DNA of 64,000 nt from an uncultured Bacteroidota bacterium (GTDB lineage: Bacteria; Bacteroidota; Bacteroidia; Bacteroidales; M50B96), in contig CALGAK010000025.1 of NCBI GenBank assembly GCA_937954085.1, positions 9,317 to 73,316 on the forward strand, written 5' to 3'. A program made the translations under genes and the position numbers. Of the stretch, positions 33,041-47,573 are shown one piece after another. Each line of letters starts with the position of its first letter. Position 1 is the stretch's first letter. The notes beneath the pieces are model-generated. The model saw only the letters and a list, made by a program, of their open reading frames with translations. It was not told the origin of the DNA and made no database searches.

Positions 33041-33217
33041 TTATTTAATGTGCAAGATTACATGAATCTTGTATATCTAAAAAGCATCGAAACTCCCCTA
33101 AATATCTATATCTATGGACATTTCCATATCGAGCTCTTTACCCTCCAAGACGATGACAAAATACAATAATTTATTGATAAAAATAATTAAGGAGTTTGTT
33201 CTCTGACATTCGTTCGA

Positions 33218-33231
33218 TTGACTTAGGTCAA
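33218..33231. promoter_or_regulatory. Perfect FNR/CRP-type palindrome TTGAC-TTAG-GTCAA
   Basis: Extended perfect inverted repeat GATTGAC-TTAG-GTCAATC (33216-33233). It lies in the divergent region between the Crp/Fnr gene (-) and the first cytochrome gene (+). A TAnnTTTG -7-like box (TATTTTTG) sits at 33307-33314. Confidence 0.45.
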
Positions 33232-33349
33232 TCCTAAGCTGACATTTCTCATACGCCGCGTGAGTTATCTCATTAAGGTCAAACCCCCTATTCTTAGGCT
33301 ATTTGGTATTTTTGAGTCGCAACTTTAATCAATATTAAACTTTACGCTT

Positions 33350-33718
33350 ATGACAAGAAGAAAATCAACTTTACTTTGGACTTTGGCCTTGCTCTTGTTC
33401 GCAATCAGCTCTTGCGAGTACACCAACATTGAGCCCATCGAAGTAGTTTTACCCGATGAAAAAGTCTCCTTCAGCGAGGAAATTGCTCCCGTTTTAGCAT
33501 CCAAATGTGCCTCCTGCCACCAATCGGTTGCTCCTATTTTAAGTGCCGGTAACGAATACAACAATCTAATCAATGGTGGATACATTAACCTTGATGCACC
33601 CGCTGAAAGTATTCTTTACACGAAAACCTCTGGAGGTCATCCGGCAGGTAGCGGTTTAACAGCTACAGAACAAGCTATCATTCTTAAGTGGATTGAAGAA
33701 GGTGCTGAAAACAACTAA
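33350..33718 (+). CDS. Monohaem c-type cytochrome-domain lipoprotein (PSCyt1-like)
   Basis: Lipoprotein signal LLLFAISSC. It has a single CASCH haem-c motif in the context F-x-EEIAPVLASKCASCH, which resembles the 'IxPIL…CxxCH' Planctomycete-type cytochrome c domain. Confidence 0.65.
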   Translation: MTRRKSTLLWTLALLLFAISSCEYTNIEPIEVVLPDEKVSFSEEIAPVLASKCASCHQSVAPILSAGNEYNNLINGGYINLDAPAESILYTKTSGGHPAGSGLTATEQAIILKWIEEGAENN

Positions 33719-33751: not shown

Positions 33752-34630
33752 ATGGGTACAATGAAGAAACTATTAACCTTACTAGTTATGGGGATATTGC
33801 TCGGAAGCAGTATGCTCACCTTTGCACAAGAGGAAAATGAAGAAAAAGATATGCGTCCGGTTCGTTTCGATTGGGCAACAACCATCCTTATCGATCACCA
33901 AACCGTGAAGAATCTTCCGCAAGGAACTTGGCAATACATGATTTACCACCGATTTGGTAAAATGGACAAAGGAATTTCCGATTTTTGGGGAATTTATGCT
34001 CCCTCCAACATTTCAATGGGAATCCACTATGGTATTACCAATAAGTTATCGGTAGGAATTAGTTCCGAGAAGAACAACAAACTTCAAAGCCTTAACTGGA
34101 AATACAATATCATTAACCAAACAAGGGGTGGAACCATTCCCGTGAGTGTTGCCTACGTCGGTAATATGAGCGTCGATACACGTCCTGATGAAGTTTTCGG
34201 TCAAAATTATGAACTAACCAACCGATTTTCCTACAACCACTCGCTTATCGTAGCCAGAAAATTCAATGATCGTTTAAGTTTACAAGCCGCTGTGGATTAC
34301 ACCCACTTTAATAGTGTGGAAGAACTCACTCGTCACGATGTTATTGCATGGCACTTAGGTGGTAGGTATCGTTTCATTGGAGAGAATTCAATTGTATTTG
34401 AGTACACAAGCCCGATGGACGTAAACCTAAACGGTTATTCAAACATTGATGAGTTCAATCCTCTTGCTGAACCAGGATTATCTTTCGGATGGGAATGGGG
34501 AACAAGTACTCACGCCTTCCAGTTCTTTGCCTCAACCTATGAGCACATTGTTGCACAAAAAAATATTGCCTTCAATAAAAATGAAATAGGCGACTTCTTA
34601 CTAGGATTCAATATCACTGTAAGATTCTAA
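33752..34630 (+). CDS. DUF5777-family beta-barrel protein (probable outer membrane)
   Basis: Signal peptide …SSMLTFAQ. It has the YHRFG…G…DFWG… and …HYGITNKLSVGISSE… pattern I associate with DUF5777, alternating beta-strand periodicity, and ends in …NITVRF (terminal aromatic). Confidence 0.7.
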   Translation: MGTMKKLLTLLVMGILLGSSMLTFAQEENEEKDMRPVRFDWATTILIDHQTVKNLPQGTWQYMIYHRFGKMDKGISDFWGIYAPSNISMGIHYGITNKLSVGISSEKNNKLQSLNWKYNIINQTRGGTIPVSVAYVGNMSVDTRPDEVFGQNYELTNRFSYNHSLIVARKFNDRLSLQAAVDYTHFNSVEELTRHDVIAWHLGGRYRFIGENSIVFEYTSPMDVNLNGYSNIDEFNPLAEPGLSFGWEWGTSTHAFQFFASTYEHIVAQKNIAFNKNEIGDFLLGFNITVRF

Positions 34631-34772: not shown

Positions 34773-35747
34773 ATGAAAACACTAATTAATTTAAGCTTAT
34801 TAAGTTTGGTCGTTGCCCTTTTATGTTCAGCCAATATCCCGACTAACGATGAAATGGCAGTAGGCCAACCAAGCGAAGAGGTAATTGAAGCCAACAATTT
34901 GTGCTTCTCTTGCCACGGACAAAAACTCTTTACATACTATAATCCTGAACTCGACCGAGAGATAAAGGATAATATGTGTGACGAAAAAATTGTCAACGAA
35001 GAAAAATTCTACCTGAGTAATCACCGAACCTTCCAGTGTATTGGTTGCCATTCGGCCGATTATGAAAGCTTCCCCCACCCTGGCGAATTGCGGTTTGAAC
35101 AACAATATGCCTGCAACGACTGTCACGGTTACGACGATGATTGGGCTCATTTCAAATTCGATGAAATTGAAGAAGAGTTCATGAAATCCGTTCATTCCAC
35201 CAATCACGACGAAGCATTTACTTGCTGGATGTGTCACGACCCACACGAATATCATATCACCTATCGTAACGAAGAGAATCTGTTGAACACGATTGCCTAC
35301 GACAATGGTATTTGCCTCACCTGCCATGCCGATGTGAATCGTTACCAACTTTTAACCGATAAAGAAAAACCTAACGTAGATCAACAACACAGCTGGTTGC
35401 CCAACCAACAATTGCATTTTACTAAGGTTCGTTGCATCGAATGCCATGCAGAGCTTAACGACAATGTTCTAGTAGCTCATAATATTAGACCGAAAGAAGA
35501 AGCCGTAAAAAAATGTGTAGAATGTCATTCGAGCGATAGTCGATTAATGGCTTCTTTATACAGCCACACGGTTAAAACAGAACGTTGGTCGGGCGGATTT
35601 GTCAATGGAGAAATGGTTACGCAAGGTTTTGTTATTGGAGCTAACCGAAACAAATACCTGAACCAGGGCAGCTTGTATATCTTTCTGGGTACCTTAGCCA
35701 TTATCCTCATTCATTCAATTTTACGTGCAATTTATATTAAGAAATAA
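34773..35747 (+). CDS. Heptahaem c-type cytochrome with C-terminal membrane anchor
   Basis: Signal peptide plus seven CxxCH motifs (CFSCH, CIGCH, CNDCH, CWMCH, CLTCH, CIECH, CVECH). A C-terminal hydrophobic helix (LYIFLGTLAIILIHSILRAIY) is present. 324 aa. Confidence 0.85.
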   Translation: MKTLINLSLLSLVVALLCSANIPTNDEMAVGQPSEEVIEANNLCFSCHGQKLFTYYNPELDREIKDNMCDEKIVNEEKFYLSNHRTFQCIGCHSADYESFPHPGELRFEQQYACNDCHGYDDDWAHFKFDEIEEEFMKSVHSTNHDEAFTCWMCHDPHEYHITYRNEENLLNTIAYDNGICLTCHADVNRYQLLTDKEKPNVDQQHSWLPNQQLHFTKVRCIECHAELNDNVLVAHNIRPKEEAVKKCVECHSSDSRLMASLYSHTVKTERWSGGFVNGEMVTQGFVIGANRNKYLNQGSLYIFLGTLAIILIHSILRAIYIKK

Positions 35748-35748
35748 G

Positions 35749-36360
35749 ATGGGAACAAGAATTTATTTATATCCGGGTTGGTTAAGATTTTGGCATGCAA
35801 TTAATGCCCTGATGTGTTTGGTGCTGATAGTATCCGGACTTAGCATGCAGTACACCGATTTTGAACGCTACATTTTGGATTTCCAGTTAGCTGTTCAGCT
35901 ACACAATATTGCTGGTGTAATTCTATCCTTTAATTACTTCATTTTCCTCTTCGGGAACTTGTTTACACCCAATGGTCGCCAATACTTTTTATTTCGTCGC
36001 GGTGTTCTGAAAAACCTGTTTACACAGCTACACTATTATACCTTGGGAATCTTCAGAAAAGAAGCTACACCCTTCCCTATCACAACGGAAAATAAGTTCA
36101 ATCCTATTCAACGTACAGCCTACGTGTTGGTTGGATATGTTGCTACCATCATTGTTATCGTTACCGGATGGGCTTATCTATTTCCTGAAATCGTTCCAAA
36201 TACTATTGGGAATGTTAGTGGGCTTTTAATAAACGACCTAATTCATATCTCGATGGGGTATTTCATTTCGATCTTTCTGATCATTCATATTTACTTCATT
36301 ACGATTGGAAATACTAAGATGAAAAATTTCAAGAGCATGGTTACCGGTTGGCACGAGTAA
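35749..36360 (+). CDS. Membrane b-type cytochrome (PhsC / Ni-Fe-hydrogenase cytochrome b-like)
   Basis: Four TM helices carry conserved-looking His residues (RFWHAIN, QLHNIAG, LIHISMG, IIHIYF), consistent with two b haems. The ATG lies 2 nt after the heptahaem stop; the track ORF starts at 35725 in the overlap. Confidence 0.65.
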   Translation: MGTRIYLYPGWLRFWHAINALMCLVLIVSGLSMQYTDFERYILDFQLAVQLHNIAGVILSFNYFIFLFGNLFTPNGRQYFLFRRGVLKNLFTQLHYYTLGIFRKEATPFPITTENKFNPIQRTAYVLVGYVATIIVIVTGWAYLFPEIVPNTIGNVSGLLINDLIHISMGYFISIFLIIHIYFITIGNTKMKNFKSMVTGWHE

Positions 36361-36418: not shown

Positions 36419-37387
36419 ATGACAGCGAAAAATGAAAGCCGCCGGAGCTTCCTGAAAGCCGGACTTTCGCTGAGTGCTGGCGCTGCTTTAGGCGCAGCTG
36501 CCCTCAGTGGAAGAGCCGATAGCATGGATGCTCCGTCTGAAAAAATTAAGTTGGTAACGGCCGATGGAAGAGTGATTGAGGTGGAGAAGTACGATTTATC
36601 GATCGACGACCGTAACCCGGCGAGCATTGAAAAGTCTCATTACGGACTACCCGGAAGGAAGTTTGTGATGGTCATTGACTTAGCAAAATGCAAAAATGCC
36701 AGGAAGTGTGTCGAAAAATGTCAAGAGGGACATTACTTACCAGAGGACCATGAGTGGTTGAATATTTATTTGCTGAAAGATAGTCCTGAAAGTGCACCCT
36801 ACTGGTTTCCGCGGCCCTGCTTTCAGTGCGATAATCCATTGTGCGTTAGTGTTTGCCCGGTAGGTGCAACCTTTAAACGAACCGATGGCATCGTTTTAGT
36901 CGATACCGACCGATGCATTGGATGCAAGTTTTGTATGACAGGATGTCCATATTCAGCGCGTGTTTTCCATTGGCATGAACCTGAAGTGGAGGTTCCCGAG
37001 GGTACCGTTTACAGTCCTGAAACGGCCTATCCTGCTGAAGAAGGAACAGTTGGGAAATGTGTTTTTTGTGCCGATTTACTGCGTAAGAACGAACTACCTC
37101 GCTGCGTTGTAGCTTGTCCGGAAGGGGTCATCTATTTTGGCGATTTGAATGAAGACACAGTGACTAATGGTGTGGAAACCATGGTTTTTAGCGAATTGAT
37201 AAAAAACCGATCCGGTTATCGATACCATGAAGATTTAGGAACACGCCCAAGTGTTTATTATCTACCTCCGGTAGACAGACTCTACGAGGTAGAGGAAGGT
37301 TTCTCCCTTCATGCTGAGAATCCTGAGATCCTAGAGCGATACAAGAACACTGAAACCTACAAAAAATACTTTGGCGATGGACATTAA
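36419..37387 (+). CDS. Tat-exported 4x[4Fe-4S] ferredoxin subunit (NrfC/PsrB/DsrO-like)
   Basis: Twin-arginine signal SRRSFLKAG. Cys clusters CKNARKCVEKC, CFQCDNPLCVSVCP, CIGCKFCMTGCP and CVFCADL…CVVACP. 322 aa. Confidence 0.85.
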   Translation: MTAKNESRRSFLKAGLSLSAGAALGAAALSGRADSMDAPSEKIKLVTADGRVIEVEKYDLSIDDRNPASIEKSHYGLPGRKFVMVIDLAKCKNARKCVEKCQEGHYLPEDHEWLNIYLLKDSPESAPYWFPRPCFQCDNPLCVSVCPVGATFKRTDGIVLVDTDRCIGCKFCMTGCPYSARVFHWHEPEVEVPEGTVYSPETAYPAEEGTVGKCVFCADLLRKNELPRCVVACPEGVIYFGDLNEDTVTNGVETMVFSELIKNRSGYRYHEDLGTRPSVYYLPPVDRLYEVEEGFSLHAENPEILERYKNTETYKKYFGDGH

Positions 37388-38708
37388 TAACACCCTTACC
37401 ATTGATGGAGCAATCAAGGAATTCGCTCCTCAAATAGAGAAAACCTCCCCACTAGGTTGGTCGTGGATTACTTTCCTGTCGGTTCTGGTCTTATTCGGGT
37501 TCTATGGATTATACACTCAAATAGCCGAAGGGCACATCGTTACCGGTATGCGCGACAATGTTGTATGGGGAATCTATATTGTTAACTTCATCTTCTTCAT
37601 GGGAGTTAGCTACGCTGGAGCACTCATTTCCGGAACCTTGCATCTCTTTCGATCCGAATGGAGAAAGCCCGTTATCCGGATGGCTGAGTGGATTACGATT
37701 ATTTCTCTTTTAATAGGCCCATTGTATATTCTTTTGTGTATCGGACGACTCGACAAATTGCATAATATAGCCTTGTTTGGTAGGATTCAATCGCCCATTA
37801 CATGGGACGTTATTGCAATCTCGACGGATATTGTAGGATGTATCATCTTCCTCTACATGGCTCTTTTACGCGATTTTGCTCACTTAAGAGATTATCCGGA
37901 ATTGAAAGTTCCCAAATGGAAAAAGAAACTCTATTATTATTTCGCTCTCAAGTACCATGATACCCCGGAACAACGGAAAAAATTAAACCGGACGGTCGAT
38001 ATCATGGCTGCGATGGTCATTGCGATTGCCATTATTGTGTACTCGGTACTTGCATGGATTTTCAGTGTTACCCTCCAACCAGGTTGGCACAGCACTATTT
38101 TTGGGCCCTATTTCGTAATTGCTGCTGTCTATTCTGGCACAGCTGTACTCATTGTGAGCATGTATTTATTCCGCAAGGTATACAAGTTAGAACATGTCAT
38201 AACCGAGCTTCATTTCAAGAACATGGGAATCATTCTCCTGGTGTTAGGAGCATTTTTTGGTTACTTCACCTTCTCTGAGTATCTCACGAAATGGTATGGA
38301 TCGCAAAAGAACGATGAATTACTAATCAGTATCTTATTCGACAAATATTATTGGGAATTTGTGATCTCAAATTATATTGGTGTTCTTTTACCTCTAATCA
38401 TTATAGGAATACCAAAGTTTAGGACCATTAAGTCTATTACATTTACCTCGTTGGTAGTGATATTAGCCTTGTGGCTAAATCGTTATCTTATTGTGGTTCC
38501 TACGCTTGAATCCCCTTATTTACCTATTCAAGACAGTCGCAGTGCATGGGTTGATTATGGCGGGACATGGGTCGAATGGTCGCTTACCCTGGGCGGGATA
38601 GCCGGTTTTTTGCTCTTATTTACTTTAGCGTCCAAGCTAGTTCCGATTGTGCAGCTTTCGGCTTTGGTCAAAAAAGATAAGTCGGAAGAGAATCGAAAAT
38701 CGGAGTAA
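37377..38708 (+). CDS. NrfD/PsrC-family polytopic quinone-interacting membrane subunit
   Basis: ~440 aa with about 10 TM helices. The N-terminal region …GHIVTGMRDNVVWGIYIVNFIFFMGVSYAGALISG is typical of NrfD-like proteins. The ATG overlaps the FeS gene stop by 11 nt, which suggests translational coupling. Confidence 0.8.
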   Translation: MDINNTLTIDGAIKEFAPQIEKTSPLGWSWITFLSVLVLFGFYGLYTQIAEGHIVTGMRDNVVWGIYIVNFIFFMGVSYAGALISGTLHLFRSEWRKPVIRMAEWITIISLLIGPLYILLCIGRLDKLHNIALFGRIQSPITWDVIAISTDIVGCIIFLYMALLRDFAHLRDYPELKVPKWKKKLYYYFALKYHDTPEQRKKLNRTVDIMAAMVIAIAIIVYSVLAWIFSVTLQPGWHSTIFGPYFVIAAVYSGTAVLIVSMYLFRKVYKLEHVITELHFKNMGIILLVLGAFFGYFTFSEYLTKWYGSQKNDELLISILFDKYYWEFVISNYIGVLLPLIIIGIPKFRTIKSITFTSLVVILALWLNRYLIVVPTLESPYLPIQDSRSAWVDYGGTWVEWSLTLGGIAGFLLLFTLASKLVPIVQLSALVKKDKSEENRKSE

Positions 38709-38740
38709 TTAGTTTTTTAATCAACTTAAGCCCAGGAACT

Positions 38741-39619
38741 ATGAAAACGAAAATATTTTTTATCATCGCCAGTTTACTCCTTCCATTTGGAATGAAGCTG
38801 GCTGCAAGCGAACCCTACTCGTTAAGCTTTTACCTTGAATATCGGAAGTTAGCCGAAGGTGAGCGAAAAATATCGGCAACGGCTAAGTATAAACCCGACC
38901 GATTCTGGGAGGTAATACAAGGGATGAAGGTAGAGTTCTATTACTTAAACGAAGAAGGAGATGAAGTCCTTTTGGCCGATGGTATAACCGACGAAAAAGG
39001 AACAGCCAGCATCCTTATTGATCCTGAATATCCTTTATATCGAAATGAGGAAGGGTTAATCGAATTTGTTGCAAGAACCGAAGAAACCGAAAAATATGAG
39101 CTTGCGGAGGAATGGCTCTCTATTCGAGATATATATCTAGAAATGAAGCTAATTGAAGATGGCGACGAACGAACCATTGAATTACATGCAGAAGTTTTAG
39201 ATGAAAACGGAGAGCTTGTCCCCTTATCCGACGAGGATATCTATTTTTCAGTCCCACGGATGTTTAGTAAACTTCCACTTGGAGAAGAAACGCTAGAAGA
39301 TGGCTTCTGTTCCATAACATTTCCAGCGAATATCGTTGGGAATGCTGAACGAGAAGTAACTATATTAGCGGAGATTTTTGAGCATTATGAATTTGGAACC
39401 GTTCAAGCGAGTAAGGTTTCCACTTGGGGAAAACTCGGTAGTCCTCACTTAATTGAACATCCTTCCCGGGAGCTTTGGACACCCGTTGCACCATTATGGA
39501 TGATTATCACCCTGATTGTGCTTTTGGTTGGAGTTTGGGGACATTATATTTACGCAATTGTGCAACTGGTTCTGATTCGGAAAGCAGGCACAAGATTTGA
39601 AAGAGAACAACAGGTTTAA
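38741..39619 (+). CDS. Hypothetical acidic periplasmic protein with C-terminal TM anchor
   Basis: Signal peptide, then a Glu/Asp-rich beta-rich body with Ig-like repeats (…KGTASILIDPEY…). It ends in a TM helix (LWMIITLIVLLVGVWGHYIYAIVQLVLI). I recognise no family. It is embedded in the cytochrome operon. Confidence 0.5.
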   Translation: MKTKIFFIIASLLLPFGMKLAASEPYSLSFYLEYRKLAEGERKISATAKYKPDRFWEVIQGMKVEFYYLNEEGDEVLLADGITDEKGTASILIDPEYPLYRNEEGLIEFVARTEETEKYELAEEWLSIRDIYLEMKLIEDGDERTIELHAEVLDENGELVPLSDEDIYFSVPRMFSKLPLGEETLEDGFCSITFPANIVGNAEREVTILAEIFEHYEFGTVQASKVSTWGKLGSPHLIEHPSRELWTPVAPLWMIITLIVLLVGVWGHYIYAIVQLVLIRKAGTRFEREQQV

Positions 39620-39657: not shown

Positions 39658-40056
39658 ATGAAAACTAGAATTCTTAGCATTTTTGCGCTAGTAATGGTTA
39701 GCATGCTCGTTGTAGGCTTTATGCCCAGCGCCCAAGACGGATGGGACATTCCGGAAAAGTATCAGAAAATGAAAAACACCCTAGAACCAAACGATGAGAA
39801 CATCGCAATTGGTAAGAAACTGTATAACAAGCATTGTCGTTCTTGCCATGGAACCAAAGGCTTAGCCGATGGACCGAAAGCTGCCAACATGAGAACTCCT
39901 ATGAGAAGCCTTGCTGGTGCCGAATACAAAGCTCAGTCGGATGGCGTGAAGTATTACAAATCGTTTGTTGGGAAAGATGAAATGCCCAACTTCGAAAAGA
40001 AAATCACCGAGGAAGAAGATCGTTGGGCTATTATTAATTACATGGAAACTTTATAG
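39658..40056 (+). CDS. Class I monohaem cytochrome c
   Basis: Signal peptide, a single CRSCHG motif in the context GKKLYNKHCRSCHG, and a distal Met candidate (…KDEMPNF…). 132 aa. Confidence 0.8.
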   Translation: MKTRILSIFALVMVSMLVVGFMPSAQDGWDIPEKYQKMKNTLEPNDENIAIGKKLYNKHCRSCHGTKGLADGPKAANMRTPMRSLAGAEYKAQSDGVKYYKSFVGKDEMPNFEKKITEEEDRWAIINYMETL

Positions 40057-40086
40057 TGTTTTCATAACTAACTAGCTGTTAGATAA

Positions 40087-40119
40087 AGAGGATGTCGAAT
40101 GACATCCTCTTTTTTTTTT
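40087..40119 (+). terminator. Rho-independent terminator closing the cytochrome/NrfCD operon
   Basis: Perfect 10-bp stem AGAGGATGTC-GAAT-GACATCCTCT followed by 9 T. Confidence 0.75.
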
Positions 40120-40190: not shown

Positions 40191-40204
40191 TTGATAAATA
40201 TCAT
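40191..40204. promoter_or_regulatory. FNR-consensus-like palindrome TTGAT-AAAT-ATCAT
   Basis: One mismatch to TTGAT-N4-ATCAA. It lies about 100 nt upstream of the hexahaem lipoprotein ATG. A TAnnTTTG -7-like box (TATTTTTG) sits at 40259-40266. Confidence 0.45.
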
Positions 40205-40303
40205 TTAAAACAGCATGCATCTCACCTTCCGGGAACTCAGAAACAGCAAGCATTCCTCTATTTTTGAACCGGACATTATAATCATTAACTTAATTTTATT
40301 GAG

Positions 40304-41314
40304 ATGAAAAAAATTCTGACTTTATTGACCAGCAGCTTGTTTTTAGCAGGCATGGTTTTTACCAGTTGCGAAGGACCTCAGGGGCCCGAAGGACCGCAAG
40401 GACCAGCAGGTGAAATTGGAGCTTTAACTTGTGTGGAATGCCACGACTTCAGCACCGATTTATTTGCAAAAGTTTTACAGTACGAAAATTCCACCCACGT
40501 AACCGGTGGAAACTACAATCGTAACTACGGCGAATGTGCAATTTGCCATACACACGAAGGTTATATTGATAACTTAGAAACCGGTGCTGGTACTTCCGAT
40601 GCTGCTTTAGTTAATACTACTCACATTAACTGCCGCACTTGCCACATGATCCATGAGAACTACGATGCAACCGACTGGGATTTACGCGAAACTGAAGCAA
40701 CCACCTTCTTTACAGGTGTTGCAGCTCCCGACATGGGAACCGGTAATCAGTGTGCTTCTTGCCACAAATCTCGTGCTTACGACGTTCCTGAAATTGGCGG
40801 ACCCGATGTTGAGATTACCAGCAGCCGTTATGGCCCACACTATGGTGTTCAAACCGATATGATGGCTAGCCATGGCTTATATGAATTCCCTGGCAGTTTA
40901 AGCTATCCGAGTAACAATCCTCACGGAAACCTTGCTAACGGTTGTGTTAGTTGTCATATGGCTCCCGGATATGTTGACCAATCAGGCGGACACACCTTCA
41001 CAATGAGAAATGAATCAGAAGCGTTGAATATGACCAGCTGTACCGATTGCCACGGTAGCCTTACTTCTGAAGATGTAGATGCTTTCCAAGCTGAAATTCA
41101 TGTTTTATATGATTCATTATTCAACACCCTAGTTGCTAAAGGCTTAATGAATGAAACAACTGGTTTAGTTGTTACTGGAACAGTATCGGGTAGCGAAGCT
41201 GCTGCTATCGCTAACTATCGTACCATTTATGGCGACCATAGTTTTGGTCTTCACAACCCAGGTTACATTAAAGCTATCCTAAACAATACCTTAGAAGCTG
41301 CTCAAGATTTCTAA
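40304..41314 (+). CDS. Hexahaem c-type cytochrome lipoprotein with collagen-like Gly-X-Y linker
   Basis: Lipobox MVFTSC, then GPQGPEGPQGPAGEIG (five G-X-Y triplets). Six CxxCH motifs follow (CVECH, CAICH, CRTCH, CASCH, CVSCH, CTDCH). 336 aa, monocistronic, between two terminators. Confidence 0.85.
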   Translation: MKKILTLLTSSLFLAGMVFTSCEGPQGPEGPQGPAGEIGALTCVECHDFSTDLFAKVLQYENSTHVTGGNYNRNYGECAICHTHEGYIDNLETGAGTSDAALVNTTHINCRTCHMIHENYDATDWDLRETEATTFFTGVAAPDMGTGNQCASCHKSRAYDVPEIGGPDVEITSSRYGPHYGVQTDMMASHGLYEFPGSLSYPSNNPHGNLANGCVSCHMAPGYVDQSGGHTFTMRNESEALNMTSCTDCHGSLTSEDVDAFQAEIHVLYDSLFNTLVAKGLMNETTGLVVTGTVSGSEAAAIANYRTIYGDHSFGLHNPGYIKAILNNTLEAAQDF

Positions 41315-41336
41315 TCGAAAATCTCTAAACGATTCA

Positions 41337-41371
41337 ATCCCGAATGCCTTCGCATTCGGGATTTTTTTTTT
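41337..41371 (+). terminator. Rho-independent terminator after the hexahaem cytochrome gene
   Basis: Perfect 11-bp stem ATCCCGAATGC-CTTC-GCATTCGGGAT followed by about 10 T. Confidence 0.75.
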
Positions 41372-41452
41372 CAAAAAAAAATTAAACAACCTTTCAAGTT
41401 ATAATTCCTATCCTACATTTGCATCGTTGTTGCATTTAAAAACGCATTGCAA

Positions 41453-41887
41453 ATGAAACCTATTGACATCTTAAACGAAACCCATCTCAAACGAACCAGC
41501 TGTAGAGAGGGAATTTTAAAAGTAATGCTTGAATCGAATGAGGCACTTTCCGAGAACGAGATACGGGAGCGCTTGGAAGGTAACTACGATCGAACGACCT
41601 TCTATCGATCATTCAAAACCTTGGAAGAGAACCACATCGTGCACAAAATTATAATCGATGCCAGTCTTACCAAGTATGCTCTTGAAGAACAGTATCTGGA
41701 AATAGGTCCGTTACATTCAGAGAAAGAAACAACATCGATGCATGCTCATTTTCATTGTCAGCAATGCAATACGGTAAAATGCATTCCATTAAAAGACTGT
41801 CCTACCCCTGTGCTGCCAGAAGGCTACCTCATCGATCATTTTGAATTAATCGTAAAGGGAACGTGCCAACTATGCAATTTGAATTAA
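41453..41887 (+). CDS. Fur-family metalloregulator (Fur/Zur type not resolvable)
   Basis: Winged-helix N-terminus (…RTSCREGILKVMLES…LSENEIRERL…DRTTFYRSFKTLEE…) and C-terminal HAHFHCQQC…CQLC metal sites. The first ATG was chosen; the track uses TTG at 41447. The stop lies 1 nt before the next gene. Confidence 0.8.
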   Translation: MKPIDILNETHLKRTSCREGILKVMLESNEALSENEIRERLEGNYDRTTFYRSFKTLEENHIVHKIIIDASLTKYALEEQYLEIGPLHSEKETTSMHAHFHCQQCNTVKCIPLKDCPTPVLPEGYLIDHFELIVKGTCQLCNLN

Positions 41888-41888
41888 G

Positions 41889-44285
41889 ATGTCGATCGTA
41901 GTTCGAAGCTATCTTTTCTTCAACCTGCTGATTATTTCGAATTATCTAGTGGCGCAAAGCCGGATTCACGGGCGGGTTTATGATCAGGAAGGTAAGGCCC
42001 TGACAGGAGCTATCGTACAGGTGAAAGAAAAACCAGAGGTCGTGATGACTGATTCCTTGGGACGGTTTTCAACTTCGGGACTTCCTCCAGGATTCTACAC
42101 CCTTCAGGTAAGCTTTATGGGATGCACAAATCAAAGCCTTCGTGTGTCCTTGCAAGAAAACAGCGAATATCTCGAGGTACATCTTCAACCGTCTCCTTAT
42201 CAACTAAATGAAATTACCATTCAAGAGAAGAACCTCTCCGAAAATACTTCTCCTCCATTTGGCCCATCCGTGGAAGTATCGGCCAATTTCCTTCAACGAT
42301 ACGATCAAGGCAGTTTAATGCAATCCCTTTCGCGACTGGGAGGTGTTCAAAGTCAAAGCATTGGCTCCGGTACCTCCAAGCCAATGATTCGTGGATTAGG
42401 CAGTAATCGCTTGGTAGTGACTGAAAATGGAGTAAAACATGAAAGTCAGCAGTGGGGAATGGATCATGGGCTCGAAATGGATCAATATTCAGCCGATAAA
42501 GTAAAGGTTATACAAGGACCTTCTTCCTTGAAATATGGTTCAGATGCACTAGCAGGAATCATTGAAGTTCAGTCATTTTCGCCTGTTTTGAATCAAGGAT
42601 TTAGAGGTAAATTGAATGCACACACCCATTCCAATTCCGGGCGCTTAGGTTCTCATTTAACTCTTAGCTGGAGCGACAGCACCTATCATGTTGAAATGAA
42701 AGCCGGAGGAACTCGTTATGGCGATTACACTGTACCGGGCGATAGCGTTGATATCTATTCCTTTCGTATCCCTCTAGACGAGGGGCGATTGAGGAATACC
42801 GCAGGGCGTGATCATAGTCTAAGCTTTGCATTTTTTCGTCAGGGAGAGCAAGCCGATCAGCGTTTGCAATTGAGTTATTATTTTCAACAAGCTGGATTTT
42901 TTGCCAATGCGCATGGGATTGAACCCAGGAGCGTTGACTATTCCCTCCACGACCGCAGCAATTGGGACATTCTCCTTCCTCAATTTTGGGTAAAGCATTA
43001 TAAATTCCATTACATGAACGACAGAAAAATTGGTTCATGGAGTCTGAAACAATCCTTCGCCTATCAGTTTAACCACCGCGAGGAGTTAAGCGAATATACA
43101 CAACATGGGTTCATGCCTGCGAGCCTGCCCGATTCCTTATCCTATTGGAGCGAACTGGATCGGTCCTTTAAAAAGCACAGCTATCATTATCAGCTCATTA
43201 CTCATTATCAGCAAGGAAATCGCTGGCAGTTTGAGCAAGGACTTGCGTTTGAAGGACAACGGAATCGGATTGGAGGTCGTAGTTTTTTACTTCCCAATTT
43301 CAATCAGCTAGGTGGAGGCATTTTTTCGACTGCTAGGTATCAATTGTCTTCTTATCATAGCATAAGTGGTGGGTTTCGGATCGATGCAATGCAACTTAAA
43401 AGCGAGCAGCATGCCGATTGGTTTGCCACTCCCCTTCTACATGATGTGGAATCCGAGCCCGTTTATCTGATGCGCTCCAGTGAATTGGAAAAAACCTTTA
43501 TGAACTACGCATGGAGTATTTCTTATGAATGGGAAACCGTGGATCGAGCCATTGCGATACATTTAGGAAGAAGTTTTCGCAATCCAATTGCCAAAGAATT
43601 GGCTGCTAATGGCGTCAATTATCACTATTTTAGTTATGAGATTGGCAATCCTGATTTAGATCAGGAGGTTGCTTATCAGGGTGATGTAAATCTTCGATGG
43701 AGTAACACATTCATTGAACTACAGATTAATCCATTTCTCGGATACTTCGAAAATTACCTTTTTCTGGATCCTACCTCCGAATATGATCAATTGTATGGAC
43801 AAGGAAATCAGGTATTCAGGTATTCAGAAGCTGCTGTTTTACGAACCGGAGGTGAAGTAACGCTCCTGACCAGGTTCAGCTCGAATTGGATGCTTGGAAA
43901 CACCACTGAGTATTTGTACACGGAACAATTGAGCGGCACTAAGCTTGGGTATCCCCTTCCCTTTTCTCCGCCGCTTAGCAGTTTGTGGAGCCTAAGTTAT
44001 GAAATGGATTATCAACAAGAAAGGGCTATTCGTTTTGAATTGGACTATCAGCTAGTAGCAGCACAAACTCGCATTGTAGCACCCGAGTTCATTACTCCTT
44101 CCTACCAATTATTTGGCTTTAGAGCACAGGCTGATTTTAGTCTTTTCGGGCAAGAATTTACATCCAGCTTTCAAATCCAAAATTTGCTCAATACCCGCTA
44201 TTGGAATCATACTTCCCTGTATCGACTCATGAATTTGCCTGAGATGGGACGAAATATTCAGATTAGTCTTCACTATATTTTCTAG
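41889..44285 (+). CDS. TonB-dependent receptor with N-terminal CarboxypepD_reg domain
   Basis: N-terminal …GRVYDQEGKALTGAIVQV…TDSLGRFS…LPPGFYTLQVSFMG, plug motifs (…PMIRGLGSNRLVV…NGVKHE…) and a C-terminal barrel ending …ISLHYIF. 798 aa. Confidence 0.85.
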   Translation: MSIVVRSYLFFNLLIISNYLVAQSRIHGRVYDQEGKALTGAIVQVKEKPEVVMTDSLGRFSTSGLPPGFYTLQVSFMGCTNQSLRVSLQENSEYLEVHLQPSPYQLNEITIQEKNLSENTSPPFGPSVEVSANFLQRYDQGSLMQSLSRLGGVQSQSIGSGTSKPMIRGLGSNRLVVTENGVKHESQQWGMDHGLEMDQYSADKVKVIQGPSSLKYGSDALAGIIEVQSFSPVLNQGFRGKLNAHTHSNSGRLGSHLTLSWSDSTYHVEMKAGGTRYGDYTVPGDSVDIYSFRIPLDEGRLRNTAGRDHSLSFAFFRQGEQADQRLQLSYYFQQAGFFANAHGIEPRSVDYSLHDRSNWDILLPQFWVKHYKFHYMNDRKIGSWSLKQSFAYQFNHREELSEYTQHGFMPASLPDSLSYWSELDRSFKKHSYHYQLITHYQQGNRWQFEQGLAFEGQRNRIGGRSFLLPNFNQLGGGIFSTARYQLSSYHSISGGFRIDAMQLKSEQHADWFATPLLHDVESEPVYLMRSSELEKTFMNYAWSISYEWETVDRAIAIHLGRSFRNPIAKELAANGVNYHYFSYEIGNPDLDQEVAYQGDVNLRWSNTFIELQINPFLGYFENYLFLDPTSEYDQLYGQGNQVFRYSEAAVLRTGGEVTLLTRFSSNWMLGNTTEYLYTEQLSGTKLGYPLPFSPPLSSLWSLSYEMDYQQERAIRFELDYQLVAAQTRIVAPEFITPSYQLFGFRAQADFSLFGQEFTSSFQIQNLLNTRYWNHTSLYRLMNLPEMGRNIQISLHYIF

Positions 44286-44316
44286 AACAAACAGCTAGTT
44301 ATACAAATCAAATCAG

Positions 44317-46560
44317 ATGAAAACCTCAACCTTTCTATTCGTGCTTCTCCTAGTGGACCTTATGACTTTTAGTCAAAGTAAGATAATTGGGAGAGTTAGC
44401 GACCAACATAATAATCCTTTGGTAGGTGCAACCGTTTATCTACCCGAACTGAATAAAGGGACTATCACCGATTGTGAAGGCGAATATTCCCTCAAGAATA
44501 TCCCTAAAGGGAGAATAACTATTCAGTTTTCCTTCTTAGGTTATCTCACGGAAGTAAGATCCATACTGGCCTCAGATACGTTAGCCCGCATAGACATTCG
44601 ATTAAGCGAAGCGGTAATTCAATCGCAAGAAGTGGTGGTTACGGGCGGATACGTGAGTTCTCAGCATGAGAATGCCGTGAAAATTGATGTGTTAAGAAGT
44701 AAAGATTTTTCATGGTTGGGGACTCCTAATTTTACTGAAACACTCACGCAAATTCCAGGAGTTGACATGATTTCCAAGGGGCAAGGTGTTGCCAAACCCG
44801 TTATTAGAGGTCTTTCCATGAATGACATTTTGGTAATGAATCATGGTGTGCGCATCGAGAACTACCAATATGGTGAAAATCATCCTATTGGGATTGATGG
44901 GAATGATGTAGAACGGGTTGAGATCATTAAAGGACCGGCGTCGCTTTTATATGGTTCCGATGCAATTGGTGGGGTAATCAATTTCATTAAAGAAAAACCA
45001 GCCCCTACCCATCAGTTAGTGGGTGATTATGGCATTCAGCTGCATTCGAATACGCTGGGACTAAATCAATCGGTGGGACTCAAAGGAAGGCTAGATAAAC
45101 TTTACGGAGGAATCCGCTTAGGACATAAGACCCATTCGGATTATATTCAGGGAAATGGAGACTTTGTTCCTAATACACGATTTAATGAACGAAGTTTAAA
45201 CGCCCATACCGGTTATTCTGCCAGTAACGGAAGTTTTCGTTTATACTACGATTATTTCGAACAAGATTTAGGGATGAGTGTACCAGCGGCTATCTCGTTG
45301 ATTTCAGAGGCGGACAGAACGAATCAAATCTGGTATCAAGATTTAGCCTACCAATTGCTTTCGTCGCAAAACAGCCTCTACATTCGTAAATTCAAATGGG
45401 AATTGAATGCTTCCTACCAGAGCGCCCAAAGGAAACTCCAAACCCTCGAAAAGGCTCCCTTTGTTGAAATGAACTTGAATACTTTTAGTTACGAATCGAA
45501 AGTGTATTTCCCATCGGATAAAGGGCAGGAATATATCTTGGGCATACAGGGGATGTTGCAAACAAATAGCAATAAGAACGACAGAGAGAGTCAATTTTTA
45601 CCCGATGCAAACAGGAATAATTTAGGGTTTCTAGGGTTAATCAAGTACTCACTGTTTAATCAACTCAAACTTCAGGGAGGATTCCGCTACGACTACTTTC
45701 AAACAGAAACATATGCCTTAGGTGCTCCTGAAAGCTTTAATTATCAGGCACCCGTTAATCGTTTGTTTGGAAGTTTTAGTGGATCAATTGGAGCCACTTA
45801 TTCGCCTCAAGATGAGTGGATGCTTCGGCTCAACTTGGCGAAAGGTTTTCGTGTCCCAACCCTATCAGAGTTAACTTCTCATGGCTTACATGGTAATCGT
45901 TACGAGATAGGCAATGACCAACTTGTACCACAGAATTCACTCGAAACAGATGTCAGCGTGCATTATCATGGTCACTATTTATCGTTCGATTTGGCAGCTT
46001 TTCACAATCGAATCGACCAGTACATTTTTATTTCTCCTTCCAACGACACAACCCTGACCGGAGTGCCTATTTTCCATTTTTCACAAACCAATGCCCTGCT
46101 CTATGGAGGAGAAGCTGGTGTTCACTTTCATCCTGAGCAAATTCCCTGGTTACATGTTGAAAGCACTTTTTCGAGTGTTATCGGGAAACAAGAGAATGGT
46201 CATTTTTTACCCTTTATACCAGCTAATAAACTTCGATACGAGATTCGGGCAGAGCATAAACGAATTGGATTTTGGGATAAGCCAAACATTAAAATTTCCG
46301 TGTTAACTGCCTTTGCTCAAAACCATCCTTCACCATTTGAAACCGCAACACCTTCTTATACCCTCATCAACCTTAGTAGCTATTTCGAAATGGTTGTTGC
46401 CAAGCAACGAATACAGGTAGGAATTGCTGTCAATAATATTTTGGATATTCAGTACATAGATCATTTATCCACCTTAAAACCACTGAACTTTTTCAATCAG
46501 GGACGAAATGTAAGTCTTTCCATCAAAGTACCCTTTGGAATTAATTTGGAATCGCATTGA
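44317..46560 (+). CDS. TonB-dependent receptor with N-terminal CarboxypepD_reg domain (second copy)
   Basis: …GRVSDQHNNPLVGATVYL…TDCEGEYSLKNIPKG…, plug motifs (…PVIRGLSMNDILVM…, …IIKGPASLLYGSDAIGGVINF…) and a beta-barrel. 747 aa. Confidence 0.9.
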   Translation: MKTSTFLFVLLLVDLMTFSQSKIIGRVSDQHNNPLVGATVYLPELNKGTITDCEGEYSLKNIPKGRITIQFSFLGYLTEVRSILASDTLARIDIRLSEAVIQSQEVVVTGGYVSSQHENAVKIDVLRSKDFSWLGTPNFTETLTQIPGVDMISKGQGVAKPVIRGLSMNDILVMNHGVRIENYQYGENHPIGIDGNDVERVEIIKGPASLLYGSDAIGGVINFIKEKPAPTHQLVGDYGIQLHSNTLGLNQSVGLKGRLDKLYGGIRLGHKTHSDYIQGNGDFVPNTRFNERSLNAHTGYSASNGSFRLYYDYFEQDLGMSVPAAISLISEADRTNQIWYQDLAYQLLSSQNSLYIRKFKWELNASYQSAQRKLQTLEKAPFVEMNLNTFSYESKVYFPSDKGQEYILGIQGMLQTNSNKNDRESQFLPDANRNNLGFLGLIKYSLFNQLKLQGGFRYDYFQTETYALGAPESFNYQAPVNRLFGSFSGSIGATYSPQDEWMLRLNLAKGFRVPTLSELTSHGLHGNRYEIGNDQLVPQNSLETDVSVHYHGHYLSFDLAAFHNRIDQYIFISPSNDTTLTGVPIFHFSQTNALLYGGEAGVHFHPEQIPWLHVESTFSSVIGKQENGHFLPFIPANKLRYEIRAEHKRIGFWDKPNIKISVLTAFAQNHPSPFETATPSYTLINLSSYFEMVVAKQRIQVGIAVNNILDIQYIDHLSTLKPLNFFNQGRNVSLSIKVPFGINLESH

Positions 46561-46615
46561 TAAAACTTTAGTACATCTATAAACAAATCAGTATTAATCT
46601 AAAACCTTAACAACG

Positions 46616-47062
46616 ATGAATTTAAGTATTCGATTTTTCTTGAGTGCCGCACTTTTAATCAGCTTGTTCACTTCATGTAATGAAGATGATGCCACTCGAC
46701 AACCGGTTATCACCCTAAGCGAATTAGGAATGGAGAATTCGAAGCAGGCCTATATCGGCGACGAGTTGCATATTGAAGCTAGTATTTTAGCCGAAAATGG
46801 GATTGAGCAAATTGAGTTAAGCATTCATCCCGAAGGACTTACCATCCATAAGCAATTGCAAAATAGCTTCGATTCGGGTTGGGAGTTGGATACAGTTTTT
46901 ACCGATTACACGGGGCTAAAGAATACCGAGTTTCACGAACACTTTGATATTCCTTTCACTGCCGTGCCCGGTCTTTATCATTTTCATTTGATTGTTACCG
47001 ACACCGAGGGGTATCAGGCTCACAGCGAAGAGGAACTTTTACTGCTAGCACCCCAAGACTAA
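46616..47062 (+). CDS. DUF4625-like lipoprotein
   Basis: Lipobox LFTSC followed by acidic NEDDA. Ig-like body with …IGDELHIEASI…IEQIELSIHPE…FHEHFDIP…GLYHFHLIVTD. It accompanies the TonB-dependent receptors. Confidence 0.65.
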   Translation: MNLSIRFFLSAALLISLFTSCNEDDATRQPVITLSELGMENSKQAYIGDELHIEASILAENGIEQIELSIHPEGLTIHKQLQNSFDSGWELDTVFTDYTGLKNTEFHEHFDIPFTAVPGLYHFHLIVTDTEGYQAHSEEELLLLAPQD

Positions 47063-47075
47063 TTCAGATAAACTA

Positions 47076-47573
47076 ATGACAACAAAGCAACTAGTATCTC
47101 TATTACTGTTATCCGGAATCTTTTTCGGTGGATGCGATACCGATTCCATCGATCAGGAGCGACCGGTTATTGATTTCACGCTTGAGGGAAGTTTTCCTCA
47201 AGCGTGCGATACAATCTATTTCAACGAAGGATTTGAACTAAGGGCTTATTTTTCCGACAATGAGGGCTTAGCCAGTTTCAGCCTCGATGTCCATCATAAT
47301 TTTGACCATCATAGTCATAGCACTGAACCGGTAAGTTGTGAATTAGATTCGACTAAAGAGGCTACGAATCCATTTGTATATATCCAAGATTATCTTTTGG
47401 ATTCAGCAGAGATTCAAGTTTCAGAGCAAATTCTCTTCAGCTCGGACAGTTCTCAGCGACATGATTCGGGCGACTACCATTTTTTCCTCCGCTTAACCGA
47501 CATCAATGGTTGGACCACTTACCGTGGCGTTCCGGTGAAGCTTCTTTATCGTGATTCGGTTTTAAACAAGTAG
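47076..47573 (+). CDS. DUF4625-like lipoprotein with His-rich motif
   Basis: Lipobox FFGGC followed by acidic DTDSIDQE. …LASFSLDVHHNFDHHSHS… is the His-cluster motif I associate with DUF4625, followed by …GDYHFFLRLTD. Confidence 0.7.
   Translation: MTTKQLVSLLLLSGIFFGGCDTDSIDQERPVIDFTLEGSFPQACDTIYFNEGFELRAYFSDNEGLASFSLDVHHNFDHHSHSTEPVSCELDSTKEATNPFVYIQDYLLDSAEIQVSEQILFSSDSSQRHDSGDYHFFLRLTDINGWTTYRGVPVKLLYRDSVLNK

Follow-up and report, generated by a model that had tools for sequence, protein, structure and literature searches.

A collagen-like stalk joins the lipid anchor to an OcwA-type haem domain in a family of hexahaem lipoproteins from Bacteroidota and other phyla

We analyzed a 64,000-nucleotide stretch of DNA from an uncultured Bacteroidales bacterium (contig CALGAK010000025.1, positions 9,317 to 73,316; here called the window) and centered the work on one gene in it, HEX, an open reading frame (ORF) at 40304-41314 on the plus strand that encodes a hexahaem lipoprotein of 336 amino acids. 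HEX belongs to a large family in which a collagen-like run of G-X-Y triplets, conserved in sequence and variable in length, lies exactly between the lipidated cysteine and the first haem, a placement that fits a tether or spacer. Judged from sequence profiles and a predicted structure, the haem domain is a shortened OcwA-type module, made up of the NrfA five-haem core plus one N-terminal haem. The reading that we prefer, and to which we give chances a little better than even, is that HEX, controlled by FNR and probably tethered to the outer membrane by a spacer of variable length, serves as a terminal reductase or electron hub. The parts of the protein on which this argument depends are the following, all on the plus strand.

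40304-40369, plus strand: signal peptide and lipobox, with Cys22 invariant in the family (alignment and N-termini)
40373-40426, plus strand: G-X-Y stalk, six unbroken triplets, GPQ GPE GPQ GPA GEI GAL
40430-40444, plus strand: haem 1, CVECH, three residues past the last stalk Gly; aligned with OcwA haem 4
40535-40564, plus strand: haem 2, CAICH-THEGY; aligned with OcwA haem 5 (CLKCH-SAEAY) and with the position of the active-site haem in NrfA; candidate for a His-only site
40631-40645, plus strand: haem 3, CRTCH; aligned with NrfA haem 2 and OcwA haem 6
40751-40774, plus strand: haem 4, CASCH-KSR; invariant R157 at the position of the NrfA catalytic Tyr
40838-40843, plus strand: H179-Y180 (family consensus PHHGPQ), aligned to the OcwA His-His motif over haem 5
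40943-41053, plus strand: haems 5 (CVSCHM) and 6 (CTDCH), aligned with NrfA haems 4 and 5 and OcwA haems 8 and 9
41066-41308, plus strand: C-terminal bundle of three helices carrying D311-x-S313-x-G-x-H317-N318, a motif invariant in the family and shared with OcwA and NrfA

HEX has the N-terminus of a bacterial lipoprotein and signal peptidase II substrate: MKK and a hydrophobic stretch lead into the lipobox F-T-S-C, with the cysteine at +1. The Cys22 codon (tgc) occupies 40367-40369, E23 comes next, and the N-terminus as a whole reads MKKILTLLTSSLFLAGMVFTS-C22-E-GPQ-GPE-GPQ-GPA-GEI-GAL-TC43VECH. Because the lipobox is invariant (C22 was present in all 56 aligned sequences and in the N-termini of the nearest 120 homologues without exception), we infer that HEX is exported by Sec, cleaved by signal peptidase II, and lipidated at Cys22. 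The initial annotation, made from the DNA letters, had described this lipobox and a G-X-Y run of five triplets directly after it; the run is where it was said to be, with a sixth triplet that had been missed. Its count of six CxxCH motifs beyond the stalk was right. These motifs start at residues 43, 78, 110, 150, 214, and 246, and all six are invariant across the family alignment, which places HEX among the multihaem cytochromes c.

We then compared the stalk across the family. A word-indexed search returned 260 HEX homologues, every one of them unnamed or annotated as "hypothetical," and the N-termini of the nearest 120 were compared. All 120 show the same order of parts, namely, a signal peptide, the lipobox Cys, E, TKE, or VKE, the G-X-Y triplets, and the first CxxCH, which comes 1-4 residues after the last triplet. 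The number of triplets runs from 2-3 up to 19, and the linker from the Cys to the haem measures 11-59 residues. Whatever its length, the repeat is never broken, starts 1-3 residues past the acylated Cys, and contains an invariant E-G-P-x-G; in the 56-sequence alignment, G24, P25, G27, and G36 are as constant as C22. The Gly period and E-G-P-x-G are kept over at least four phyla, at 35-45% domain identity. Proline fills the X position in 44% of the triplets, the Y position is mostly Ala, Asp, Gln, or Glu, and KGD/KGE-type triplets occur in the long stalks. This composition, with Pro at X and a polar or charged Y, is that of bacterial collagens. The Pfam collagen repeat model PF01391 is not reached by the six triplets of the window, whereas many homologues with at least 10 triplets do reach it, and in the AlphaFold2 monomer model the stalk is disordered (predicted local distance difference test [pLDDT] score below 50).

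Stalk length is characteristic of clades. One Bacteroidales clade typically has about 3 triplets, Saprospiraceae have 8-9, and Ignavibacteria-like sequences have 13-16; the commonest class has 3 triplets (23 of the nearest 120 homologues). Relatives with 75-88% domain identity differ by 1-3 triplets, and a relative 80% identical to the window's HEX has 9 triplets against its 6. Whether the stretch is conserved or varies in length, a check that the initial annotation had proposed, can thus be answered on both counts: it is a conserved feature of variable length. Locus L095 (G172:C142) carries a tandem pair of paralogues, 394 and 371 amino acids long, with identical signal peptides and G-X-Y runs of differing length, both among the longer ones, which suggests a recent duplication followed by divergence of stalk length.

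To extend the survey, we ran an exhaustive hidden Markov model search of 1.84 billion representatives, clustered at 50% identity. It gave 806 clusters at an E value of 1e-30 or lower and 2308 at 1e-10 or lower, and an N-terminal G-X-Y run was present in 127 of the 146 top cluster representatives. The exceptions are of two kinds. Some are single-module lipoproteins in which acidic, non-collagen linkers of similar length take the place of the stalk (for example, CSKDENEDES in P0189 and CGGSDSDADE in P0156), and others are giant multi-module relatives with neither a lipobox nor a G-X-Y run. Given this distribution, the stalk goes with the lipid-anchored single-module architecture, and the collagen sequence is strongly preferred there but replaceable rather than indispensable. 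Homologues lacking the stretch had been named beforehand as grounds for calling it an incidental linker; such homologues exist, but about 90% of single-module homologues have the stretch, so that on this count the refutation mostly fails; a minority of the lipoproteins use acidic linkers, and the giants have no stalk at all. The acidic linkers of P0189 and P0156 also resemble the Bacteroidota lipoprotein surface-export signal, a hint that at least some family members may be surface exposed. Among the 5063 ORFs of the source genome (3.0 Mb, 160 contigs), HEX is the only one with a Pro-rich G-X-Y run of at least five triplets, and the other three G-X-Y matches are Gly-rich low-complexity stretches. 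We therefore rejected the idea that G-X-Y runs serve this organism as a generic lipoprotein tether.

Next, we examined the haem domain. Sequence libraries yielded generic multihaem matches, with Pfam Cytochrome_C7 and Cytochrom_c3_2 above their cut-offs. The AlphaFold2 model, built from the 56-sequence alignment, has a pLDDT of 88.4 and a predicted template modeling score (pTM) of 0.82; it has helices at residues 255-278, 296-311, and 319-335 and, short bridges aside, is all alpha or loop. In a Foldseek search of the PDB with this model, the first match was OcwA of Thermincola potens (6i5b; E = 5e-6, TMq 0.51), followed by the S-layer undecahaem cytochrome of Carboxydothermus ferrireducens (6qvm) and then by NrfA and octahaem nitrite reductases (ONR). 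The family profile searched against the PDB agreed with this ranking: its match to OcwA (E = 7.8e-13) spans the final two haems plus the three-helix bundle, and NrfA follows at 1.8e-5. Hence, of the structures suggested for comparison by the initial annotation (NrfB, MtrA, OmcS, and OmcZ), none is the closest; OcwA is. Against a profile of 25 NrfA sequences from the same order, hhalign gave a probability of 97.6% (E = 1.4e-11) and paired HEX haems 3-6 with NrfA haems 2-5, with the invariant R157 lying three residues after the haem-4 His. Together with the DHSFGLHNP motif conserved in the C-terminal bundle, these matches place HEX in the superfamily of OcwA, NrfA, ONR, and hydroxylamine oxidoreductase (HAO).

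The remaining haems were assigned through a bridge. HEX residues 38-332 align to one module of a giant relative, P0131 (30% identity, E = 3e-28), and the same module aligns to OcwA 252-395, including the CxxCH-S/T-x-E-A/G-Y at haem 5 and the His-His motif. By these alignments, HEX haems 1-6 correspond to OcwA haems 4-9, and HEX GP-H179-Y180 is aligned with OcwA H351-H352 in chain numbering. The OcwA paper (PMC6703420) numbers the distal His-His motifs as 281/282 and 380/381; an offset of 29 fits both of these to the chain positions 252/253 and 351/352. With that offset, H179 matches the motif above His-only haem 5, the NrfA-like active site of OcwA. A profile of the A2 fragment, covering the region from haem 4 to haem 5, gave no OcwA match in the PDB. 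The alignments suggest that H179 (with H or Y at 180) probably lies over haem 2. The place of haem 2 at the active-site position, H179, and R157 together suggest that haem 2 is probably an open or weakly ligated site at which an acceptor could be reduced. The family also conserves His residues outside the CxxCH motifs, at H65, H117, H179, H230, and H317 and at one position 5-10 residues before haem 5.

We also asked how the gene might be controlled. The elements concerned are listed here.

32345-33040, minus strand: Crp/Fnr-family regulator (Pfam cNMP_binding and HTH_Crp_2), divergent, at the head of the cluster
40085-40112, plus strand: intrinsic terminator of the upstream operon, 12-bp stem and T-run
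40191-40204, plus strand: FNR/CRP-type box TTGATAAATATCAT, 9 of 10 consensus positions with one mismatch, about 107 nucleotides before the ATG
40259-40266, plus strand: TATTTTTG, a -7 type element read from the sequence, 38 nucleotides before the ATG
41336-41363, plus strand: intrinsic terminator 3' of HEX, 12-bp stem and T-run

The two flanking terminators and the upstream FNR-like box of the initial annotation were all found, and the box is conserved in position upstream of homologues. The accompanying claim that the gene is monocistronic fits the window, where HEX has its own box and terminators, but not the family at large: HEX is first in an operon at about 17 related loci and last at about 17. 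Within the window, boxes matching TTGAT-N4-ATCAA with at most one mismatch are no commoner than chance (4 found versus 5.9 expected). In the 250 nucleotides upstream of 76 homologues from GTDB genomes, however, a perfect TTGAT-N4-ATCAA occurred in 14 and one with at most one mismatch in 22, compared with 0.1% and 2.5% of shuffled upstream regions. A Saprospiraceae homologue with 42% protein identity has its box at -107, just past the preceding terminator, like that in the window. Thus, it is phylogenetic footprinting, rather than its score, that supports the HEX box. The element TATTTTTG is presumably the Bacteroidota -7 promoter element TAnnTTTG.

The cluster regulator has its cysteines arranged as in FNR (C8-x-C10-xx-C13 and one central Cys); its matches to the NCBIfam FnrL and Fnr models fall below cut-off, and a homologue of it adjoins 31 of 80 related loci. 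With the box and an FNR-type regulator both present, HEX has the sequence marks of an FNR regulon member and is probably subject to FNR-type regulation, switched on without oxygen; the cluster regulator would act at the HEX box. Between the regulator and the small lipoprotein gene p122, the divergent promoter region contains further FNR/CRP-like palindromes, TTGACTTAGGTCAA (33216-33233) and TTGATAAAAATAAT (33174-33187).

Conserved synteny was determined over 80 HEX loci in GTDB species-representative genomes, the set to which the fractions of loci in this report refer. Their hosts are Bacteroidales, Lentimicrobiaceae, Saprospiraceae, Chitinophagales, Ignavibacteria, Kapabacteria, Chlorobiota, and Gemmatimonadales metagenome-assembled genomes. 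In the window, the genes between the regulator and HEX are as follows.

33350-33718, plus strand: p122, a monohaem lipoprotein of 122 amino acids with lipobox ISSC and one CASCH; 39 of 80 loci
33752-34630, plus strand: DUF5777 outer-membrane beta-barrel (Pfam PF19089, E = 2e-68); 46 of 80 loci
34773-35747, plus strand: heptahaem cytochrome c with seven CxxCH and a C-terminal transmembrane helix as its tail
35725-36360, plus strand: PhsC-like cytochrome b (Pfam Ni_hydr_CYTB; NCBIfam thiosulfate-reductase cytochrome b at 141 bits, below cut-off)
36419-39619, plus strand: NrfC/DsrO-like 4Fe-4S protein, NrfD/DsrP-like membrane subunit, and an anchored Ig-like protein of 292 amino acids (Pfam, NCBIfam)
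39658-40056, plus strand: class-I monohaem cytochrome c of 132 amino acids (Pfam Cytochrom_C); 39 of 80 loci

Two quinol modules can be recognized among these genes. The heptahaem protein and cytochrome b (34773-36360), a CbcBA-like quinol:cytochrome module, are present at 41 of the 80 loci, and the NrfCD/DsrOP-like and Ig-like module takes its place at 14-16 loci, mainly in Saprospiraceae; the window's cluster carries both. The 132-amino-acid cytochrome c is likely a soluble carrier. The DUF5777 protein is predicted to be a 12-strand barrel (AlphaFold2 pLDDT 88), and its best folds are FapF, NanC, KdgM, and OmpG. Among 201 genomes of the order, HEX or a sister protein occurs in 47 and DUF5777 in 84, and the two coincide in 44 (odds ratio 42; Fisher P = 2e-17). 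One genome of the same genus (G031) that seemed to be without HEX has a contig break inside the neighboring gene and is not a true absence. p122, when present, is always immediately 5' of DUF5777; it weakly matches the Leptospira LIC11213 lipoprotein family. The source genome has another DUF5777 gene, closer to the canonical form, on contig C68, and the HEX-linked copies form a lower-scoring subgroup.

On the other side of HEX, at 41447-47573, lie a Fur-family gene and, 1 nucleotide on, two TonB-dependent receptors, followed by two DUF4625 lipoproteins. We considered a link to iron uptake through these genes and rejected it: homologues of the TonB receptors occur near HEX at 2 of the 80 GTDB loci, plus L002 and L009. 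Because it is not conserved beside HEX in other genomes, the Fur/TonB operon is probably unrelated. At one Saprospiraceae locus (L001, 9214-12318), a fused ResB/CcsA cytochrome c biogenesis gene directly follows the HEX homologue. Elsewhere in the source genome, contigs C54, C119, C126, and C137 carry an NrfH-NrfA pair (C54) and three further multihaem ORFs, which contain 8, 10, and 5 CxxCH motifs; for a Bacteroidales genome of 3 Mb, the source is a cytochrome-rich anaerobe.

Relatives of HEX differ from it in size and in module number. Sister families in the same order, of 370-450 amino acids, also have a lipobox and a G-X-Y run. The members of one such family (L092-L094 and L096-L098, from G003, G133, G021, G065, G198, and G073; 415-452 amino acids) have five CxxCH and a C-N-x-x-G-C-H (C-x4-CH) in place of the sixth haem site, as well as a large insert before the C-terminal helices with a conserved NLW...NYDGY. 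The giant relatives (P0131, P0207, P0216, P0218, P0263, and P0227) are 1000-1950 amino acids long, with at least two octahaem copies of the HEX module alternating with Ig-like domains and up to 24 CxxCH; P0207 also has repeated surface-type beta domains. From this architecture, the giants are probably cell-surface multihaem arrays. Their Ig-like, surface-type repeats and the homologue with the CSKDENEDES linker are hints of a surface role.

Taken together, these features suggest a mechanism, in which the electron path is drawn from conserved synteny. The FNR-type oxygen sensor at the head of the cluster would turn on HEX transcription, and given the conservation of the box, HEX would be made under anoxia or low oxygen. 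Electrons would pass from menaquinol to the CbcBA-like pair, the NrfCD/DsrOP-like pair, or both, then to the small monohaem cytochromes, and from these to HEX. HEX would be anchored to a membrane, most likely the outer one, as are most Bacteroidota lipoproteins, and its Pro-rich, acidic G-X-Y run would act as an extended, semirigid spacer and fix how far haem 1 lies from the lipid anchor; the long versions of the stalk may also form a triple helix. HEX would then either reduce a terminal acceptor at haem 2 or close by, in the manner of OcwA, or pass the electrons to outer-membrane partners, for which the DUF5777 barrel and the p122 lipoprotein are candidates.

Several of our observations weigh against this reading. 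A 12-strand barrel cannot hold a haem, so the route of electrons across the outer membrane to an extracellular acceptor is left unexplained. The open haem 2 rests on a transitive sequence alignment, and the six conserved non-motif His residues also permit six bis-His haems, their number fitting both models. The global hhalign alignment pairs HEX haem 1, not haem 2, with NrfA haem 1 and puts H179 on another, non-catalytic NrfA His, which makes the N-terminal register of HEX relative to NrfA uncertain; for the N-terminal third we placed no reliance on this alignment. In addition, HEX stands apart from the cluster at the Gemmatimonadales and Ignavibacteria loci, and the acidic-linker lipoproteins described above have an anchor and a haem domain joined by something other than collagen-like sequence.

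The stalk itself allows other explanations. If the G-X-Y run were a true collagen triple helix, three lipidated chains would assemble into an 18-haem trimer, with the stalk as the oligomerization device. This would suit its bacterial-collagen composition, with charged or polar residues at Y and KGD/KGE in the long versions, its unbroken course from the acylated Cys onward with E-G-P-x-G invariant, and the PF01391 matches of the longer homologues; moreover, N-terminal lipid tails reportedly stabilize short collagen-model peptides strongly, as in the "peptide-amphiphiles" of Fields and Tirrell, and HAO and the octahaem nitrite reductases, which belong to this superfamily, assemble as trimers or hexamers. 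We nonetheless consider it unlikely, because stalks of 3-6 triplets, which include the commonest class and the window, are far below the lengths that give stable triple helices free of hydroxyproline, and because unrelated acidic linkers can stand in for the run. OcwA and NrfA are dimers or monomers (PMC6703420). At the other extreme, the run could be a low-complexity tether with no function tied to its sequence, kept by descent and replication slippage; its variable length, the substitution by other linkers, and its disorder in the AlphaFold2 model would all be expected of such a tether. This is quite improbable in our view when the Gly period and E-G-P-x-G have stayed invariant over at least four phyla, the sister families of 370-450 amino acids carry the stalk too, its lengths are stable within clades, and no other lipoprotein in the genome uses G-X-Y. 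Most novel, and taken jointly a long shot, are two further ideas: that the acylated Cys and collagen run act as a natural "collagen peptide-amphiphile," in which clustering of the lipids nucleates a short triple helix and so builds a trimeric 18-haem OcwA-like reductase on the outer membrane, or that the extended stalk threads the FapF-like 12-strand DUF5777 barrel, by analogy with RcsF, which passes through OmpA/C/F.

The position and direction of the chain can also be read differently. HEX might be a periplasmic, pruned NrfA-like reductase of a soluble small molecule (hydroxylamine, NO, nitrite, sulfite, or another oxyanion), with DUF5777 as the channel that brings the substrate across the outer membrane and a stalk that keeps the enzyme nearby. 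Homology to the NrfA core, a pocket that is likely conserved at the active-site position (R157 at the catalytic Tyr, H179-H/Y), coupling to NrfCD-type and NrfH-like quinol modules, and the resemblance of DUF5777 to small solute or polypeptide channels (NanC, KdgM, OmpG, and FapF) are all compatible with this, and OcwA is itself said to reduce nitrite and hydroxylamine in vitro. Yet HEX is without CxxCK, S63 and R157 replace the catalytic Arg and Tyr, its PF02335 score is 18.3 bits against a cut-off of 24.1, the genome already has NrfHA, and the closest solved relatives are cell-surface metal reductases; a periplasmic enzyme of this sort is therefore, to our minds, a doubtful alternative. The CbcBA-like linkage likewise points to low-potential extracellular acceptors, to which CbcBA is tied in Geobacter (bioRxiv 10.1101/2021.04.15.440034). 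Highly unlikely is a chain that runs in reverse, taking electrons from an external donor such as Fe(II) and delivering them to the quinone pool or to an oxidase, with HEX working beside p122 and DUF5777 as a split Cyc2-like pair. A monohaem cytochrome next to a small outer-membrane barrel does recall the fused Cyc2 iron oxidases, the hosts of the family include Chlorobiota, Ignavibacteria, Kapabacteria, and microaerophilic Saprospiraceae, and NrfD/DsrP and Qrc-like modules can act as quinone reductases; however, activation of the FNR type, like partners related to CbcBA or NrfH, typically goes with quinol oxidation in anaerobic respiration, the DUF5777 barrel has 12 strands where Cyc2 is predicted to have about 16, and the annotated neighborhoods contain no linked genes for an oxidase or for reverse electron flow.

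This family bears on the question of how far extracellular or otherwise unusual anaerobic respiration reaches past Geobacter, Shewanella, and a few Gram-positive bacteria. It is large and wholly unannotated (the 806 clusters above), is found in about a quarter of the sampled genomes of one Bacteroidota order, and extends to Saprospiraceae, Ignavibacteria, Kapabacteria, Chlorobiota, and Gemmatimonadota. As a relative of surface metal reductases that is wired to quinol dehydrogenases and placed under FNR control, HEX is a candidate to fill the place of the missing terminal component in a respiratory pathway that is common in Bacteroidota of sediments, digesters, and wastewater. The spacers of 11-59 residues also form a natural series for studying what sets the distance of a haem chain from a membrane, and the same series bears on whether short lipidated collagen repeats trimerize in vivo. 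If the stalk did thread the barrel, the FCB group would have an outer-membrane electron conduit of a new type, unlike MtrCAB, PCA, and Cyc2.

Full-text literature searches (for collagen-like multihaem lipoproteins, DUF5777, and extracellular electron transfer in Prolixibacter) turned up no description of the HEX family. The novelty claimed for it at the outset holds in part: the combination of a lipid anchor, a collagen-like stalk, and a multihaem domain appears to be undescribed, while the haem domain, as a new pruned branch of the known OcwA/NrfA superfamily, is less novel than was supposed, even though it does not qualify as NrfA itself and has no defined function. In its stalk, HEX resembles the bacterial collagen-like proteins Scl1/2, BclA, and Bucl, which share an unbroken G-X-Y repeat, its number variable between strains and lineages, with Pro at X, polar or charged Y residues, and no hydroxyproline and in which the stalk holds a globular domain off the envelope. 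HEX stalks are shorter, with at most 19 triplets versus tens to hundreds; there is no separate trimerization domain, and the stalk joins the acylated Cys directly to a redox domain.

The likeness to Geobacter CbcBA concerns the neighbors of HEX, a heptahaem cytochrome with a C-terminal transmembrane helix and a PhsC-like cytochrome b, and is one of architecture alone. Homologous clusters in Bacteroidetes are mentioned in the CbcBA preprint (bioRxiv 10.1101/2021.04.15.440034). In Geobacter, other periplasmic and outer-membrane cytochromes act downstream.

With MtrC and OmcA of Shewanella, HEX would share the plan of a lipid-anchored, outer-membrane multihaem terminal reductase, and Pfam PF22113 (MtrC/MtrF domains II/IV) matches HEX residues 59-158 at 34.7 bits against a cut-off of 30. 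In MtrC and OmcA, the lipobox Cys precedes a Gly/Asp-rich linker with some Gly at a period of three. These proteins belong to another fold family and differ in having ten haems in four domains (two pentahaem domains that alternate with two beta-barrel domains), the MtrAB 26-strand porin-cytochrome partner, and no Pro-rich G-X-Y run. We rejected HEX as a protein of this type, since the PF22113 match is partial, MtrC is absent among the Foldseek matches, and the architecture is not that of MtrC/OmcA.

NrfA is closer. Its homology with HEX covers HEX haems 3-6 and the C-terminal helices, and the coupling to NrfC/NrfD-like and NrfH-like quinol dehydrogenases and the probable FNR-type control are alike. 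In contrast, HEX is without CxxCK, carries an extra haem, and is a lipoprotein with a stalk. The position of the NrfA catalytic Arg, two residues before the haem-ligand His, is S63 in HEX, and that of the Tyr is R157; the Ca-binding Glu of the NrfA E-Y is S156 in the window's HEX, and the NrfA catalytic His is unaligned to any conserved HEX His. HEX scores below the NrfA cut-offs, for NF008339 at 9.6 against 595 as well as for PF02335. On these grounds, identification of HEX as NrfA was rejected, and since the same genome has a separate, canonical NrfH-NrfA pair on contig C54, HEX is not the cell's nitrite reductase.

OcwA, finally, is the closest known protein, ranking first by structure (E = 5e-6) as well as by profile (E = 7.8e-13), at a TM-score of about 0.5 and 17% identity. 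It has nine haems, two of them His-only, and a beta-sheet domain, whereas HEX has six haems and is without OcwA haems 1-3, the first active site and His-His motif, and the beta-sheet domain, keeping one His-His-equivalent motif; HEX thus lies outside the OcwA family proper. The host of OcwA is Gram positive, and as far as PMC6703420 says, OcwA has no lipid anchor or collagen-like stalk. What the two proteins have in common is the CxxCH-S/T-x-E-A/G-Y at the active-site haem, the His-His (His-Tyr in HEX) motif that follows the third-last haem and precedes the second-last one, the Q-Y...S/G-x-H motif, and a short three-helix bundle with D-x-S-x-G-x-HN. OcwA is a terminal multihaem protein at the cell envelope, and HEX would be another.

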